From: a virus
IMG/VR virus record: IMGVR_UViG_3300021091_000027
Coordinates: 47,052 to 111,051 of that record
DNA: 64,000 bases
Strand: one strand, 5' to 3'
The notes under the pieces are model-generated. The model made no database searches, was not told the DNA's origin, and saw only the letters and a list, made by a program, of their open reading frames with translations. Every line of letters starts with the position of its first letter. The stretch's first letter is position 1. Of this stretch, positions 58,683 through 64,000 are shown one piece after another. Position numbers and translations under genes: made by a program.

Positions 58683-59081
58683 ATGCGATATTCATACCGA
58701 CTTAATAAAAGAAATTTAAAACTTCAAAAGAATTTTTTTAACGGCAAAGAATACGTATCTAAGAAGGACAACCGAGAAGTAAATATTGAAACTGCAGAAA
58801 ATGGAAATGTAATAATATCCGCTAAATTGCATCAAAACACCATTGCTAAAAAGATATTATGCCTTTATAATAATGAAGATGAAATATATGTGTCATATGC
58901 AGGCTGGAGAACAAAAACTACCTCAAGCGCCATTAAAGCATTGATACCGACTGATTGGGAATACTGTAGTGGAAGTGTCATAGCCCCCAGCGGAGCCAAG
59001 ATGTCCATACCACTATACGGATTTCTAAAATTAGTAGACCCTGTAAAAGCTCACAAAGAGTCCTGGATATCTGATATCTAA
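58683..59081 (+). CDS. Hypothetical phage protein (GW.T.TT motif)
   Basis: 132-aa ORF. Confidence 0.55.
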   Translation: MRYSYRLNKRNLKLQKNFFNGKEYVSKKDNREVNIETAENGNVIISAKLHQNTIAKKILCLYNNEDEIYVSYAGWRTKTTSSAIKALIPTDWEYCSGSVIAPSGAKMSIPLYGFLKLVDPVKAHKESWISDI

Positions 59082-59141
59082 AAAAAATTTCCATGCCTTT
59101 ATAGCATTGGCATTTTCTTACCGTTAGTATTGCTACTTACT

Positions 59142-59169
59142 AAGAAACGCAAATCCTGCGTTTCTTTTT
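59142..59169 (+). terminator. Intrinsic terminator
   Basis: AAGAAACGCA/TGCGTTTCTT followed by a T-run. Confidence 0.6.
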
Positions 59170-59270
59170 AGCTATTAAGCCACATTAAAAGTACAATTAT
59201 ATGACTTAAAATTTTTAAATATTTTAAACTTAAATTTGCATGTAGGTCAAAGATATCGGATGTTTATATC

Positions 59271-60011
59271 ATGAAAACTTTGCATAAAAATTTAATTAAT
59301 TTTAGTATATACATACTGGCTGCTTTTGTTTTGCTTTGGACTGGGTGCGCCACCTGCGAAACAACTATAAACCCTGTAAAAGTTCAAGAATATAAACCTT
59401 CCTATTTAAAAGGGTTTACATTAATTACAGACAGTGAAATGCCTGCTGTGGGTCGCATTACTGATTACGATGGTAGGTTAATTGGAAGCGCAACTCTTTT
59501 AGACTCACACCATATACTTACGGCAGGACATGTAGTAGATGATTCAGAATTCCATTGGTTTGAAACTAATGGAATGCGGTACTGCATAGATAGCATTACA
59601 CTTCCCCCTCTATTTAAAATAGGCTCTATTTATATTCTTGATGCTGCTATAGCTAAACTATATGAACCGTGTTTAGAGGAGCCTATGCAGATCTGCACTA
59701 AAGATCTAGTTCGAGGAGAGTCTCTTACAGTCGTGGGTCACGGGGGAAAATACAGAAAGAAAAGCGACCTTAACACTTTTTGCTACTACGGTACTTTAAA
59801 AGAAGACCCTTTTTATATCAAAATGCTTTGCTACAAAGGAACTATCTGGTATGGCGATTCTGGCGGTCCAGTTTTAAATCAAAATAATGAAATAGTCGGA
59901 ATTGTTTCTTCAATAGGCTTTATGCGAGGAGTCTTATATGAAAACTCCGCTACAAAAATAGAACGTATTGCCCCTTGGATAATTTTAGTACTTAAAAAAC
60001 CAGACCAGTAA
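59271..60011 (+). CDS. Trypsin-like (S1) serine protease, predicted lipoprotein
   Basis: Catalytic triad motifs LTAGHV, DAAI and GDSGGP; hydrophobic signal ending in a lipobox-like LWTGC. Confidence 0.85.
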   Translation: MKTLHKNLINFSIYILAAFVLLWTGCATCETTINPVKVQEYKPSYLKGFTLITDSEMPAVGRITDYDGRLIGSATLLDSHHILTAGHVVDDSEFHWFETNGMRYCIDSITLPPLFKIGSIYILDAAIAKLYEPCLEEPMQICTKDLVRGESLTVVGHGGKYRKKSDLNTFCYYGTLKEDPFYIKMLCYKGTIWYGDSGGPVLNQNNEIVGIVSSIGFMRGVLYENSATKIERIAPWIILVLKKPDQ

Positions 60012-60147
60012 ACGCTATTCCTTAGTAGCGCTGAGGGTGTAAAAATACCCCCTGTTTGTGTTATACATACATGCAGGATCTATAGGTATTCCAATAACTC
60101 TGTTGGACCACCAAAACAATGTAGATCCTTCAAGAAAGAGGAAACAC

Positions 60148-60684
60148 ATGAGTAACGACGTTACTGAAGATTCGCACCGGATCGCCTCGACGCTTGACCG
60201 CATGTTCCAACGTGCGGACTCGCTACCTGACAGTGCGGACCCCTGTACGGAGACTGCCTACCTATGGCATGGAACTCCATTCTCAGGACCCCACGGGTTG
60301 AATGTGCTGGATCATAAGTTGCCGATGACCTGCATCCGCAGTCTTGGCACGTACTCTCAGCTGGTGGAAGAAGGCGCTGATTCCGTAGTGGCGCTTCTTG
60401 GAGACCACGACATTCCATCTCAGTGGCACTGCAACTGGATATACCTTTGCGGCATAGGAGCCAGGAGATTTGTGGTTCAGTTCTTTACTCCAGGCTACGT
60501 GGAGAAGGTGGGCCGAGACGGGGATGAACCAATTCGCTTTCCTTACAAGATCGTTGGTCGGGGCTGGGTCACTGGTCTGCATGCCGGCACCAAGACTGAC
60601 GAAAAGATGTACGCGATCGTGTACAAGGAGGTAAACGATAAGCAGGTTACTGACTCCAAGGGTGGAAAGGACCCGGTGTCCTAA
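60148..60684 (+). CDS. Hypothetical protein
   Basis: ATG 60148 with GAGGA RBS, downstream of a promoter motif and leader hairpin. Confidence 0.6.
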   Translation: MSNDVTEDSHRIASTLDRMFQRADSLPDSADPCTETAYLWHGTPFSGPHGLNVLDHKLPMTCIRSLGTYSQLVEEGADSVVALLGDHDIPSQWHCNWIYLCGIGARRFVVQFFTPGYVEKVGRDGDEPIRFPYKIVGRGWVTGLHAGTKTDEKMYAIVYKEVNDKQVTDSKGGKDPVS

Positions 60685-60686
60685 GG

Positions 60687-60888
60687 ATAAGGGATTTAGG
60701 TCAGCCACGGGGCTGACCTTTTTTTAGGTATTAAATAGGGGGGTATTTTAAGGCCTAAAATAGGCCTCTATTTGAGGTATATATACATGAAGGAAAGGTA
60801 TAACTTTCAAACACACGTTTGAATACCTTTATTCCGTCGTGGTAAGCAGTTTTAAAAGTCTGCCCCATGCTGTAACAAAACTTGGAGA
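60687..60888 (+). repeat. ~200-bp regulatory cassette, copy 1 (terminator, promoter, structured leader, RBS)
   Basis: Near-identical to 61160-61364. Confidence 0.9.
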
Positions 60889-60895
60889 CAATCCC

Positions 60896-61150
60896 ATGCC
60901 GACAATCGGTAAAATTTTGGCAGTGATCGGAACGATCGCCATACTAATCGGAGCAATGCTTTTCCTCGTCTTCGCCGTCGAGATAGTCTTCTGGATCATC
61001 AATCAGGCCTTTCGCCTTGCCTACAGTGCCTACAGAGGCGCATGCCGGGAGGGGCGCAGGCTGATGAACTCAGTTAGAACCATCAAGACCGGCAAGTACG
61101 CCGGCCGCAAGGTCTATACCGTTAGCGATGGTGTCGAAGTCCTTGCATGA
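60896..61150 (+). CDS. 84-aa membrane protein
   Basis: ATG 60896 after the cassette GGAG RBS; long hydrophobic N-terminus. Confidence 0.65.
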   Translation: MPTIGKILAVIGTIAILIGAMLFLVFAVEIVFWIINQAFRLAYSAYRGACREGRRLMNSVRTIKTGKYAGRKVYTVSDGVEVLA

Positions 61151-61159
61151 CGCCAAAGT

Positions 61160-61364
61160 ATAAGGGGTTTAGGTCAGCCACGGGGCTGACCTTTTTTTAG
61201 GTATTAAATAGGGGGGTGTCTCAAGGCCTAAAATAGGCCTCTATTTGTGCTATATATACATGATGGAAAGGCGTACCTTTCAAACACACGTTTGAACGCT
61301 TTTATTCGTCCGTCGTGGTAAGCAGTTTTAAAAGTCTGCCCCATGCCGTAATAAAACTTGGAGA
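61160..61364 (+). repeat. ~200-bp regulatory cassette, copy 2
   Basis: Near-identical to 60687-60888, with compensatory stem changes. Confidence 0.9.
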
Positions 61365-61371
61365 TTTGGCC

Positions 61372-61446
61372 ATGAAAACTTACTGGGTTGTTAACGGAGT
61401 CGTCTACTGGACGTATTCTGAGGCCTTGGAAGCCATGAAAGGCTGA
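61372..61446 (+). CDS. 24-aa peptide MKTYWVVNGVVYWTYSEALEAMKG
   Basis: Same position relative to the cassette RBS as the 84-aa gene; followed by a terminator. Confidence 0.55.
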   Translation: MKTYWVVNGVVYWTYSEALEAMKG

Positions 61447-61451
61447 ACAAC

Positions 61452-61488
61452 GAAGGGCGGCTTAACAGCCGCCCTTCACTTTTTTTTT
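61452..61488 (+). terminator. Intrinsic terminator
   Basis: GAAGGGCGGC/GCCGCCCTTC followed by a T-run. Confidence 0.8.
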
Positions 61489-61564
61489 CAGTATTGAAAA
61501 TAATCATGTCAACAGTCATCAAATTTCTCATTTAAGTCATTATTTAACAATATAAGGAGTATAA

Positions 61565-61960
61565 ATGATAGACATTACGTATTCAAGAACCGGACTGCCG
61601 TGTATATGGGAGTCCGGCGGCGGTAGAACCAACTCCGGTCGCAGTCAAATAGTGTGCGATCGTAGCGGATTACCAATATCCCCCCTTTACATCAAACAAA
61701 GAGGCGTTTTGGCATGCGGTGAACACGCTCTTTTCCATGTGAAGCCCGGCACATATGTCATAGGGGCATCACGGCGTCACTCAGATTATGAAATATTAAT
61801 CTATGTAGTGGAAGACAATCCGGTTCGATTAAATCTAGTCTACTCATACTGCCAAGGAGAGTGGGCTTTAGATCCTCCTGCCGAATTGGAAGACGCCATA
61901 GAGGCAGCAAAAAGGAAGACGACAGAGTACCACTGCCGTCGACCAGTTTACTTCAAATAA
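61565..61960 (+). CDS. Hypothetical phage protein (WESGGG motif)
   Basis: 131 aa; TAAGGAG RBS. Confidence 0.7.
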   Translation: MIDITYSRTGLPCIWESGGGRTNSGRSQIVCDRSGLPISPLYIKQRGVLACGEHALFHVKPGTYVIGASRRHSDYEILIYVVEDNPVRLNLVYSYCQGEWALDPPAELEDAIEAAKRKTTEYHCRRPVYFK

Positions 61961-62067
61961 TGCCCTAAAATAAGGGTTAAAACGTGGTATAGATATATAC
62001 ACCGGTCCTATAGGTATTGCTGGGCGTTCCAGAGTACCCAATAGGCCACATTAAGGAGATAGTGTCA

Positions 62068-62568
62068 ATGAAGAAGACCCTTTTGTTCGTGTTGTCTGTG
62101 TTTCTCGCTATTGGACTACCGATGGTGCTGATCTGGGGAGCTTATCAGACTGCCGTTGCGGCGACAAATGCTCCAACAGTTCCGGCCATCCCGGTCGTCC
62201 TGGACTCAGGCGAACGCTGGTACGACCCATTCTCATGGGGATTGGATGAGGCTGCGGCAATCGCAACTCAACAGGCACAAGAAGCTGCCACCCGCACGAC
62301 TAAAGCCGTGACGACGTGGACTAGCAGTATGTTCCTGCTGACTGGCCTTCTGGTTACCATTGCAGTCGGTATTTGGAGTGGAGTTAGAGAGCAATCACAG
62401 CTCAAAAACTCCTGGCAGAAGTTTCGCATCGAGTCGTTAGGTGGTGAAATGACTTCTGGTTCAACTCCAAATCAAGTTCCTCCTAATTCGGAAGACACCG
62501 ATACGGAAGAGCAAGACTCGGTAGTAGCTGGGAAGGCCGCAAAAAGCCATCCTAACCAGCGCCGCTGA
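62068..62568 (+). CDS. Two-TM membrane protein
   Basis: ATG 62068 after TAAGGAG; two hydrophobic helices. Confidence 0.7.
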   Translation: MKKTLLFVLSVFLAIGLPMVLIWGAYQTAVAATNAPTVPAIPVVLDSGERWYDPFSWGLDEAAAIATQQAQEAATRTTKAVTTWTSSMFLLTGLLVTIAVGIWSGVREQSQLKNSWQKFRIESLGGEMTSGSTPNQVPPNSEDTDTEEQDSVVAGKAAKSHPNQRR

Positions 62569-62587
62569 GCCTGAGGTCGCAGACAAA

Positions 62588-62624
62588 CCCGGGCGCCCTG
62601 TACAGGGCGCCCGGGCTCTCTTTT
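62588..62624 (+). terminator. GC-rich hairpin/terminator
   Basis: CCCGGGCGCCCTG-TA-CAGGGCGCCCGGG followed by CTCTCTTTT. Confidence 0.65.
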
Positions 62625-62635
62625 AACAAAACATT

Positions 62636-62712
62636 CTCGACTATGCGAGTATAAATAGGGTATTAAGCATAGTGCGTTCATATAAATCTACGAATTTATA
62701 CTGAGGTTACTC
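62636..62712 (+). ncRNA. Pistol self-cleaving ribozyme
   Basis: P1 CUCG/CGAG; loop ACUAUG pairs with CAUAGU (pseudoknot); UAAAUAG linker; P2 GGUA/UACU; UUAAG; conserved GCG; P3 hairpin; predicted G62706/U62707 cleavage site. Confidence 0.9.
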
Positions 62713-62849
62713 TAGTCACAGCTTGAGAGCTACGAAGAAGTGAAACAACTTCGATATGCTCTAGTTTCACAAGACTCATGACTAACTAGCAGATGTAGTT
62801 CAGGGTCCCTACCTCTGTTAGAATTGAGGAACAATATGAGACCTTACAT
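62713..62849 (+). ncRNA. Putative structured small RNA downstream of the pistol cleavage site
   Basis: Nested stems UAGUCA/UGACUA, AGAGC/GCUCU and CGAAG/CUUCG; 7-bp pseudoknot GUGAAAC/GUUUCAC; second domain AUGUAG/UUACAU, GGUC/GACC, CCUC/GAGG. Confidence 0.5.
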
Positions 62850-62851
62850 GG

Positions 62852-62887
62852 GCACACTGTGGGGAAACCCACAGTGTGCTTTTCTTT
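62852..62887 (+). terminator. Intrinsic terminator
   Basis: 12-bp stem GCACACTGTGGG/CCCACAGTGTGC, GAAA loop, TTTTCTTT. Confidence 0.85.
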
Positions 62888-63052
62888 GGCAGTAATCTTA
62901 TAGATTTACTTGAATCAACTAAGTTGCCGCCAAAAAGTTGCATACGTACCGATGTAACTAAAAAAATAAAGTATTAGCGGTACAAACACACACAGCATGT
63001 AGGTATTGCTGGGCGTTCCAGACTACTTATATGTGCATTTGGAGACAACAGC

Positions 63053-63841
63053 ATGAATATCGTTAGGAGTATTTTTTCAAACATTGTTTGTTTCGGCATT
63101 GGCGTCATGGTTGCAAGTTTTTATGCGGCTTCGTCGGCAGCTACGGCTTCGTCGGCAGCTACGGCTCCGTCAGCAGCTGCGGTTCCATCGGTGGCTGTGG
63201 TTCCATCGGTGGCTGTGGTTCCATCGGCAGCTGCGGTTCCATCGGTGGCTGCGGCTTCGTCAGCAGCTACGGCTCCGTCGGCAAATAAAACTTTGGCACC
63301 AATTCTGATGTTGCCTGATTCGAATACCCCTAAGATTCTTAATAGTCTTTCAGATCGAATCAGATCGGCAAATTCGGCAGTAAAACGCGCTGATGAGCGT
63401 TTGCAGTCACTGCAGGAAGATCAGAAAAAGTCGGTCAGCACTAGCCAGATTCTGACGGAACTAGTGCCCGTCTACTACGAAGAGGACTACTCAACTCTTT
63501 ACGCAGAGGCGAAAACAGCAGGAGTCGAAATGATTCCTCATTTTGGTAACACCATAAAAACGGCATACACTTTAGCCAATAAAGAGAATATGCCGGAAGT
63601 TCGCATTGTGAAAATTGCCAAGGTTACCCGCCTTGGCAGCGCCTTCACAGTGCAAGTCTTGGACCAGTCCACCTTACACCTACCAGAGTACGAAGACCTC
63701 ATCGAGTTTATCGCTACTAATGGTGGAAATTCTGAGACTTTGGAGATAATTCAGGTGGAACGCATAAATGATGAGCGCGAGCTTGAATCATTAGCGAACC
63801 CCACTTGGAGTCAGTTCTTCAAATGGTGGTGGAACAGCTGA
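63053..63841 (+). CDS. Membrane-anchored protein with Ala/Ser/Val repeats and a coiled coil
   Basis: GGAG RBS; N-terminal TM; 6-aa repeats; Trp-rich C-terminus. Confidence 0.7.
   Translation: MNIVRSIFSNIVCFGIGVMVASFYAASSAATASSAATAPSAAAVPSVAVVPSVAVVPSAAAVPSVAAASSAATAPSANKTLAPILMLPDSNTPKILNSLSDRIRSANSAVKRADERLQSLQEDQKKSVSTSQILTELVPVYYEEDYSTLYAEAKTAGVEMIPHFGNTIKTAYTLANKENMPEVRIVKIAKVTRLGSAFTVQVLDQSTLHLPEYEDLIEFIATNGGNSETLEIIQVERINDERELESLANPTWSQFFKWWWNS
63126..63282 (+). repeat. Imperfect 18-bp coding tandem repeat (about 8 units)
   Basis: TCGGCAGCTACGGCTTCG / TCGGTGGCTGTGGTTCCA-type units encoding SAATAS/SVAVVP. Confidence 0.85.
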
Positions 63842-63882
63842 GCAAGTACCAAGGTTGGGTGTCATCCATAAACACCATCTTT

Positions 63883-64000
63883 CTCGACTATGCGAGTATA
63901 AACGTTAGACAAGGGTCTAAGGTCATAGTACATCCCACATAGATCAGCAGGTCTGTGTGGGTGTGGGTTTTTAATCCCACTTCAGCTGAAGACCTAACCC
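63883..64000 (+). ncRNA. Pistol-scaffold-derived structured RNA (non-canonical; may run past the window end)
   Basis: 22-nt block identical to the pistol 5' half, retained CAUAGU pseudoknot partner, additional hairpins; lacks the GCG and GU core. Confidence 0.55.

Follow-up and report, generated by a model that had tools for sequence, protein, structure and literature searches.

The window analysed here covers 64 kb at the end of an IMG/VR phage fragment of 111 kb (IMGVR_UViG_3300021091_000027) and stops where the contig stops. Its final kilobases hold two genes for putatively membrane-anchored proteins, A and B, each behind a promoter-like box and a leader. Between them lies a pistol self-cleaving ribozyme, E1, with a structured RNA and an intrinsic terminator directly 3′ of it; a pistol-like element, E2, starts after gene B (Table 1). 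An earlier note on this DNA had described these features as two consecutive units of a repeated module, and every element that it listed is present. The repetition of leader and pistol start also holds. The 27-nt leader occurs at 62011-62037 and 63000-63026 with 96% identity, exact over the first 23 nt (match in 0/100 shuffles), and the 22-nt stretch at the pistol start, TTCTCGACTATGCGAGTATAAA, has identical copies at 62634 and 63881 (two matches in 0/100 shuffles). The reading we favour, with a probability of about 65%, is that cassettes are shuffled at short repeats, much like the promoter-early stem-loop (PeSL) cassettes of T4-type phages, and that pistol, RNA and terminator form a separate unit lying between an old gene pair.

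Table 1. Features of the final two kilobases of the window
Feature	Position	Strand	Description and basis
Promoter box, unit A	61961..62010	+	CCCTAAAATAAGGG at 61963-61976, GTGGTATAGATATATACACC at 61984-62003; alignment of 17 cassette sequences from 6 contigs
Leader A, subtype 2	62011..62037	+	TAGGTATT, then CUGG/CCAG hairpin; GGUAUU pairs with AGUACC; exact repeat and fold
Gene A	62068..62568	+	166 aa, two hydrophobic segments, no known domain
Hairpin after gene A	62588..62615	+	12 bp, GC-rich, broken U-tract CTCTCTTTTA
E1, canonical pistol	62636..62711	+	Rfam 46.4 bits; compensatory P3 pairs relative to L009
E1 helices			P1 62636-39/62646-49; pseudoknot 62640-45 with 62668-73; P2 62659-62/62708-11; P3 62677-62705
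E1 core nucleotides			A32 G33 at 62666-67; G40 C41 G42 U43 at 62674-77
Pistol-associated structured RNA	62712..62849	+	Nested stems, pseudoknot-forming hairpin, second hairpin domain
Intrinsic terminator	62850..62889	+	14-bp stem and U-run (scan 62850-62881); 3′ boundary of unit
Promoter box and leader, unit B	62945..63026	+	Diverged family member, CACACA for TATATA; subtype-2 leader 63000-63026
Gene B	63053..63841	+	262 aa; hydrophobic N-terminal anchor, A/S/V/P-rich linker, C-terminal domain without assigned function
E2, pistol-derived chimera (probable)	63883..64000	+	P1, loop and linker 63883-63903; CAUAGU 63924-29; ACAU replaces GCGU 63930-33; terminator-like hairpin 63934-61, then further hairpins; runs past window end

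The relatives, and the unrelated L004 and L005, are contigs numbered between L004 and L025; a scan of metagenome contigs with the leader led to three, L006, L007 and L008. L006 and L007 belong to the window's lineage (99.5-99.96% identical) and confirm the arrangement of repeated leader and pistol; L006 adds 622 nt past the window end. L008 is an 85% relative of this lineage. L009, L014 and L015 form a separate lineage, with a protease gene 96.7% identical to the window's. The protease, a trypsin-like serine enzyme, has a signal-like N-terminus; its gene (59271-60011) is the last that is conserved before the variable region begins and served as an anchor in the relatives. L024, a distant relative, was recovered by family alignment of gene A homologues. 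Family alignment was needed, as single-protein queries of IMG/VR with genes A and B found no homologue. The exact leader is absent from IMG/VR, and GenBank phages gave no DNA match to 59000-64000. For the ORFs in 60148-63841 there was no Pfam or PHROGs match, and the ESM Atlas protein search returned noise-level matches only (<0.8). The fragment encodes a family A polymerase with no close cultured relative.

The base composition of the window jumps from a GC fraction of 0.35 to about 0.48 at 60000. Given the position at the contig end, this could be taken to mean that the GC-richer 60-64 kb tail is foreign to the phage and was joined to it in assembly. We give that explanation next to no credence, since it is already contradicted by L006, which crosses the composition change at 99.5% identity; L007 agrees, and the layout is reproduced independently in both. 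Moreover, cassettes of the TAGGTATT type, described below, lie within kilobases flanking the same protease gene in L008, L012 and L013. Those of L009 and L015 are known only ~8 kb from the protease, beside the RNA locus.

The relatives do not preserve leader, membrane-protein gene, ribozyme and RNA as one conserved cassette, as the earlier note had supposed; the parts occur separately in L008, L009, L015, L024 and L025. L008 has the same box, leader, gene A and hairpin without a pistol. Its homology to the window ends at the first pistol base, after which comes an unrelated gene. In L024 a pair of A and B homologues has no pistol between or after its members. The pistols found in L009, L015, L024 and L025 are in turn adjoined by neither a subtype-2 leader, the form that precedes genes A and B, nor a membrane gene. 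Thus leader and ribozyme fail to co-occur elsewhere among the relatives, the pattern that the note itself had named as speaking against its model.

That model was of a dedicated, reusable expression cassette whose protein and RNA act as partners. The layout is there in two consecutive units of the window, and all genes behind a subtype-2 leader encode hydrophobic N-termini. Yet we consider the model very unlikely, given the leader with its genes but no ribozyme in L008 and L024, the ribozyme with its RNA but no leader or gene in L009, L015, L024 and L025, and the lack of G40 and G42 in the second ribozyme of the window. A toxin/antitoxin relationship, also raised in the note, finds no support in complementarity: duplex energies of the RNA with the 5′ regions of both mRNAs fall within the shuffled range, and its longest exact complement in the 111-kb genome, 12 nt, is at chance level.

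What moves as one piece is a 254-nt unit, 62636-62889, made up of the pistol, a ~140-nt pseudoknotted RNA and the terminator. Window and L009 are 93.7% identical over these 254 nt, from the first pistol base to just past the terminator U-run, and their flanks are unrelated. In L009, L014 and L015 a canonical pistol of 53.6 bits heads the same RNA and terminator; the whole lies elsewhere and is oriented differently, with ~750 nt of non-coding RNA on the 5′ side and a 109-aa gene and a tRNA-Met on the 3′ side; neither a subtype-2 leader nor a membrane gene is nearby. Between window and L009, nine substitutions fall at paired positions and 0 pairs are broken, the other changes being in loops. Six pairs vary: three are double compensatory changes (two in P3 of the pistol, one in the RNA) and three are one-sided changes that keep the pair. 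The stretch 62708-62890 folds with z = -5.2 relative to shuffles, and within the loop AAGUGAAACAA the heptamer GUGAAAC (62740-46) is complementary to GUUUCAC (62764-70). The RNA has no Rfam family match, and ARAGORN found no tRNA in the portion that cleavage would release.

A similar pairing of ribozyme and RNA is seen in L024 and L025. There a pistol-type element is followed by a nested RNA whose apical hairpin has the loop AAGUGAAACA and a downstream GUUUCA partner. Three of the five pairs of the apical stem differ from those of the window, all of them compensated, whereas loop and partner are invariant. In this comparison 100% of cells are paired, versus 29-44% when the partner is slid. A covariance model of the downstream RNA (R1) matched the window/L006 and L009/L015 copies only, so that the likeness to L024 and L025 is structural, having been missed by a model built on sequence. 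Judged from these comparisons, the ribozyme is inherited with this RNA across lineages that have little sequence in common. A wider search for the pattern GCGUU...GAAGUGAAACA...GUUUCA in 185,579 prokaryote genomes yielded eight matches, about the estimated chance rate; they were coding-like with no pistol upstream, and were set aside. A 19-aa ORF at 62836-62895 extends across the terminator hairpin and has a family-like ribosome-binding site, GAGGAACAAUAUG; its end is frameshifted in L009, and it is therefore probably non-coding, a remnant of a former gene start.

E1 is the only match in the genome to the Rfam Pistol family RF02679, scoring 46.4 bits at 62635-62711 against a gathering score of 34.5. 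Both direct reading and the cmscan alignment identify its core: P1, a 6-nt loop pairing with the strand before G40, an AAA linker, purine-32, G33 and G40-C41-G42-U43. The junction G62706-U62707 is exactly 2 nt (GU), P2 is GGUA/UACU, and cleavage is predicted between these two junction nucleotides. The double compensatory changes in P3 relative to the L009 copy speak for the same fold. All pistol copies have CUCGACUAUGCGAGUAUAAA in common, which is also exact in two unrelated phages (L004, L005). In L004 (10888-12785, minus strand) a pistol with the same 21-nt start sits inside an array of five tRNAs and other structured RNA.

This arrangement suggests what E1 does. Transcripts that read through the hairpin at 62588 would fold the pistol, and its cleavage at G62706/U62707 would leave the downstream RNA with a fixed 5′-OH end, independent of upstream context. 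With its 3′ end at the 62850 terminator, the product would be an RNA of ~180 nt. The functional partner of the ribozyme would then be this downstream RNA, not the membrane gene, and the pistol probably sets the 5′ end of its RNA. One part of the earlier interpretation, ribozyme cleavage releasing a co-transcribed small RNA, thereby gains support, because pistol, RNA and terminator move together and show compensatory changes; the part that included the membrane gene does not survive the comparison.

Alternatively, the pistol might serve the upstream message, trimming gene A mRNA that has read through and leaving it a 2′,3′-cyclic phosphate end just past the hairpin, with the downstream RNA merely a spacer or terminator. 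Pistols and hammerheads often lie between phage genes, where their presumed role is to divide long transcripts into mRNAs of gene length (PMC3088659), and the pistols of L005 lie directly after stop codons and before the next ribosome-binding site. However, the unit moves with its downstream RNA, on whose structure selection acts, and with no upstream gene; in L009 it has ~750 nt of non-coding RNA before it. We think this explanation unlikely.

The second pistol-like RNA reported in the earlier note (63883), our E2, could not be upheld as a pistol: it gives no match to the Pistol model even at E≤10, and it is without G40 and G42. Its context is completed by L006. There gene B is followed by ~455 nt of highly structured RNA (z = -8.1) that holds E2, a lone hairpin copy CCCACACAGAUC..GGUCUGUGUGGG and a third pistol-like element, E3 (L006:4601-4680). 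On the 3′ side of this stretch are another TAGGTATT leader and a non-membrane gene. E2 and E3 both contain CAUAGU and then, in place of GCGU and P3, ACAU and a CCCACAYAGAUC hairpin, with the loss of G40 and G42. E3 scores 32.1 bits, below the 34.5 cut-off, through a local match that skips the core; it has ACAU, a 3-nt junction (CUU) and two hairpin mismatches. In E2 a stretch of ~29 nt with extra hairpins separates the P3-like hairpin from the P2-like strand. The hairpin part of E2 is 97% identical to sequence in L009 that has no pistol 5′ half, and the CCCACAYAGAUC hairpin occurs without any pistol part as one lone copy in L006 and three in L009-type contigs. The L009 counterpart of E3 is a canonical pistol, and the 5′ halves of the two are identical.

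We interpret E2 and E3 as probable recombination products joined at CAUAGU. They are probably inactive as ribozymes, because G40, G42 and the 2-nt junction are lost. In the pistol core G40 is part of a base triple with G33-C41, and G42 holds G40 and A32 in place; in the env25 pistol, single mutations of A32, G40 or G42 cut cleavage considerably (PMC6154101). The length of the 2-nt junction is strictly conserved among pistols (PMC4604425).

A pistol-type element of another kind was noted in L024 (11873-11979) and L025 (10755-10861), where a perfect hairpin of ~30 nt stands between the pseudoknot partner and GCGU. The insertion starts like a leader, with AGGTATTCC, and the same 24 nt also occur at L025:4626. 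By reading, this form has P1, the pseudoknot partner, AAGC, GCGU, a 10-bp P3, a GG junction and P2 (GGUU/AACC), while its score is only 25.7 bits.

Together with E2 and E3, this form could be argued to represent functional variants on the pistol scaffold: a new ribozyme subclass, a ribozyme under regulation, or an RNA with a structural and non-cleaving role. E2 and E3 have exact copies of P1, of the 6-nt loop and of its CAUAGU partner, E2 can close a long-range P2-like helix (GGGU..AGGUC with GACCU..ACCC), and the L024 form keeps GCGU, P3, the 2-nt junction and P2 despite its insertion. Also, in one atomic-mutagenesis study removal of N1 from G40 slowed the pistol just 2.7-fold (PMC10946891). 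Nevertheless we hold this to be quite improbable. E2 and E3 alter both G40 and G42 and have lost the 2-nt junction (PMC4604425, PMC6154101); the P3 of E3 has two mismatches, the hairpin that replaces P3 is also free-standing, and L009 is canonical at the place of E3. E2 and E3 are moreover seen in one lineage only.

Recombination at shared sequence, the reading put forward at the outset, would account for these observations as follows. The last 4 kb of the contig would be a hyperplastic accessory region of short single-gene cassettes, in which an ORFan with its ribosome-binding site is combined with a structured TAGGTATT leader, a conserved promoter box and a terminator; this architecture is common to several related freshwater phage lineages. 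The phage group would also have a separate non-coding RNA locus with a canonical pistol, the pseudoknotted RNA and the terminator at its core. In the window lineage the 254-nt unit would have come to lie between the leaky terminator of gene A and the promoter of gene B, with the rest of the RNA locus 3′ of gene B, where two pistol 5′ halves are joined at CAUAGU to the repeated terminator-like hairpin. The repeated module would thus have arisen as a side effect of recombination at short regulatory and RNA sequences present in several copies. Breakpoints are seen at such sequences: window and L008 part at the first pistol base, window and L009 at the pistol start and the terminator end, and E3 and the L009 pistol at CAUAGU.

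Genes A and B, on the sequence comparison, are an old adjacent pair encoding membrane-anchored proteins, with a special leader subtype in common. The gene A family has the invariant motif DSGERWY[DN]P[FL]SW[GS]LDE, and the L008 product is 75% identical in amino acids to that of the window. The L024 homologue of gene B (61% identity) lies directly 3′ of the gene A homologue, and each of the two has the leader subtype TAGGTATT-CUGGGUGUUCCAG on its 5′ side and a terminator on its 3′ side. Upstream of them, a third ORF, small and hydrophobic, also has a leader of this subtype. Because L024 keeps both the pair and a leader of this subtype for each gene, the shared leader is an old property of the pair, and the leader is repeated in the window because A and B have it in common. 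In L008 and L024 the leader before the gene A homologue is of subtype 2, and its changes preserve pairing. The linker of the gene B protein is encoded by nine 18-nt tandem repeats (63106-63301); the L024 homologue has a different, longer linker.

The hairpin at 62588 shows compensatory changes in L008, and the homologous hairpin of L024 is followed by T8. Window and L008 have an interrupted U-tract, which suggests read-through there; the hairpin is probably a leaky terminator or a 3′ stabiliser. In the box of unit B the TATATA-rich part of the consensus (62965-62999) reads ACAAACACACACA, with several T-to-C changes. If this box is inactive, as it may be, gene B would need transcripts that read through from the pistol unit.

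Five of the six forward TAGGTATT sites in the 111 kb lie within 60083-63000, and the cassette layout recurs before many small genes in L013, L015, L024 and L025. Members of the family have a box, CTAAAAATAGG, then TATTTTG-GGTATATATA-AGAGG, then CTATAGGTATT with a hairpin that shows covariation in its stem (CCAGCA/UGCUGG, CCGACA/UGUCGG, UCGGCA/UGCCGA, CUGG/CCAG). Bases upstream of TAGG contribute to an outer stem, and a ribosome-binding site follows. RNAalifold found no consensus on the mixed leader alignment; these stems were read directly off the alignment. The idea that TATAGG is the start site of a single-subunit polymerase was dropped as unlikely, since the covarying outer stem uses bases upstream of TAGG. 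The T7-like RNA polymerase profile PF00940 had no match in five fragments, a result that is uninformative because control genomes gave none either.

One ~210-bp terminator-promoter-leader cassette is duplicated, at 60680-60888 and 61153-61364 (88-96% identity), before two different small genes. One encodes an 84-aa membrane protein, the other a 24-aa peptide whose ORF is conserved in L008. The TAGGTATT leader word recurs in this group's pistols, where it makes up the linker-P2 part (AAAUAGGUAUUA; 62656-62665, L006:4620-4630), and it follows terminator U-runs (TTTTTTTAGGTATTAAATAGG; 60725, 61198). Being common to three types of element, it is possibly a shared recombination or protein-binding site. 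All six genes with a subtype-2 leader have a hydrophobic N-terminus (62068, 63053; L008:2662; L024:5735, 6001, 6762), and those checked behind other leader subtypes lack one. As only three gene families are represented, this is a lead, not a result.

Several points weigh against the interpretation given here. A sigma-70 scan did no better than shuffles, and we infer from sequence that the box is a promoter, that transcripts read through, that E1 cleaves in vivo and that an RNA of ~180 nt exists. Few independent events underlie the covariation, since the known versions number two sequence-distinct ones for the 254-nt unit and two of the L024 type. The ~30-nt insertion and a score of 25.7 bits, below the cut-off, make the activity of the L024/L025 pistol uncertain. 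Finally, given the hydrophobic N-termini behind all six subtype-2 leaders, leader and membrane proteins may really be linked, though not in a way that involves the ribozyme.

No new kind of system is described here, and E1 itself is an ordinary pistol. It has all the defining elements of the class and a score above the curated cut-off (RF02679; Weinberg 2015; Harris 2015, PMC4604425), and its phage intergenic setting is typical (PMC4604425). It departs from the class as described in heading a portable unit of ribozyme, pseudoknotted RNA and terminator, in having two neighbouring copies that are apparently core-less chimeras, and in having relatives with a hairpin inserted before G40. These features are what we regard as modestly new: the portable unit with its conserved pseudoknot RNA, the chimeras that would mark recombination at a ribozyme, the hairpin-insertion form of the relatives, and a PeSL-like cassette system in uncultured freshwater phages.

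The PeSL cassettes of T4-type phages (Arbiol 2010, PMC2839356; Comeau 2014, PMC4122927) are the closest parallel to the cassettes. In both, a hyperplastic ORFan region is where repeated intergenic cassettes of terminator and promoter cluster, and differences among close relatives start and stop at the repeats (PMC2839356). By contrast, the window phage is apparently not T4-type, its box is not a sigma-70 consensus, its cassettes carry a long structured 5′ leader starting from TAGGTATT, and ribozyme sequences act as junctions too. PeSL-like shuffling would thereby extend to an unrelated freshwater phage group, and a ribozyme sequence could serve as a recombination joint, leaving core-less chimeras behind.

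As in the ribozyme-punctuated operons of phages and prophages with clustered hammerheads (Perreault 2011, PMC3088659), a self-cleaving ribozyme lies between small phage genes on the same strand. The window, however, has only one intact ribozyme, and this is not needed to separate cistrons, since each gene has its own promoter-like box and terminator. Theta (HDV-like) ribozymes near phage tRNAs (PMC10879173) are similar in being placed to give a structured non-coding RNA a defined end. The parallel extends to the L004 pistol within a tRNA array and to the tRNA-Met 0.6-0.9 kb downstream in L009 and L025. Unlike theta, the window ribozyme has another fold, the RNA it would release is not a tRNA, and the cut would set a 5′ end instead of a tRNA 3′ end.

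On what a small self-cleaving ribozyme may do in a phage, the comparison here is specific: the pistol goes with a single structured RNA, downstream of it, and with no protein gene, giving it a testable role in making the 5′ end of a small RNA. A bolder version would make the unit a promoter-less, portable small-RNA gene with its own ribozyme, the AAGUGAAACA-loop RNA a new functional class and the core-altered pistols working derivatives; as a whole we regard this as speculative and rather unlikely. In synthetic insulators of the RiboJ type, a self-cleaving ribozyme frees the 5′ end of the downstream RNA from upstream context. The window element differs from these in being natural, in using a pistol instead of a hammerhead and in having a non-coding RNA as its downstream part. 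If it is indeed a portable small-RNA gene, the unit would be the natural counterpart of such insulators.

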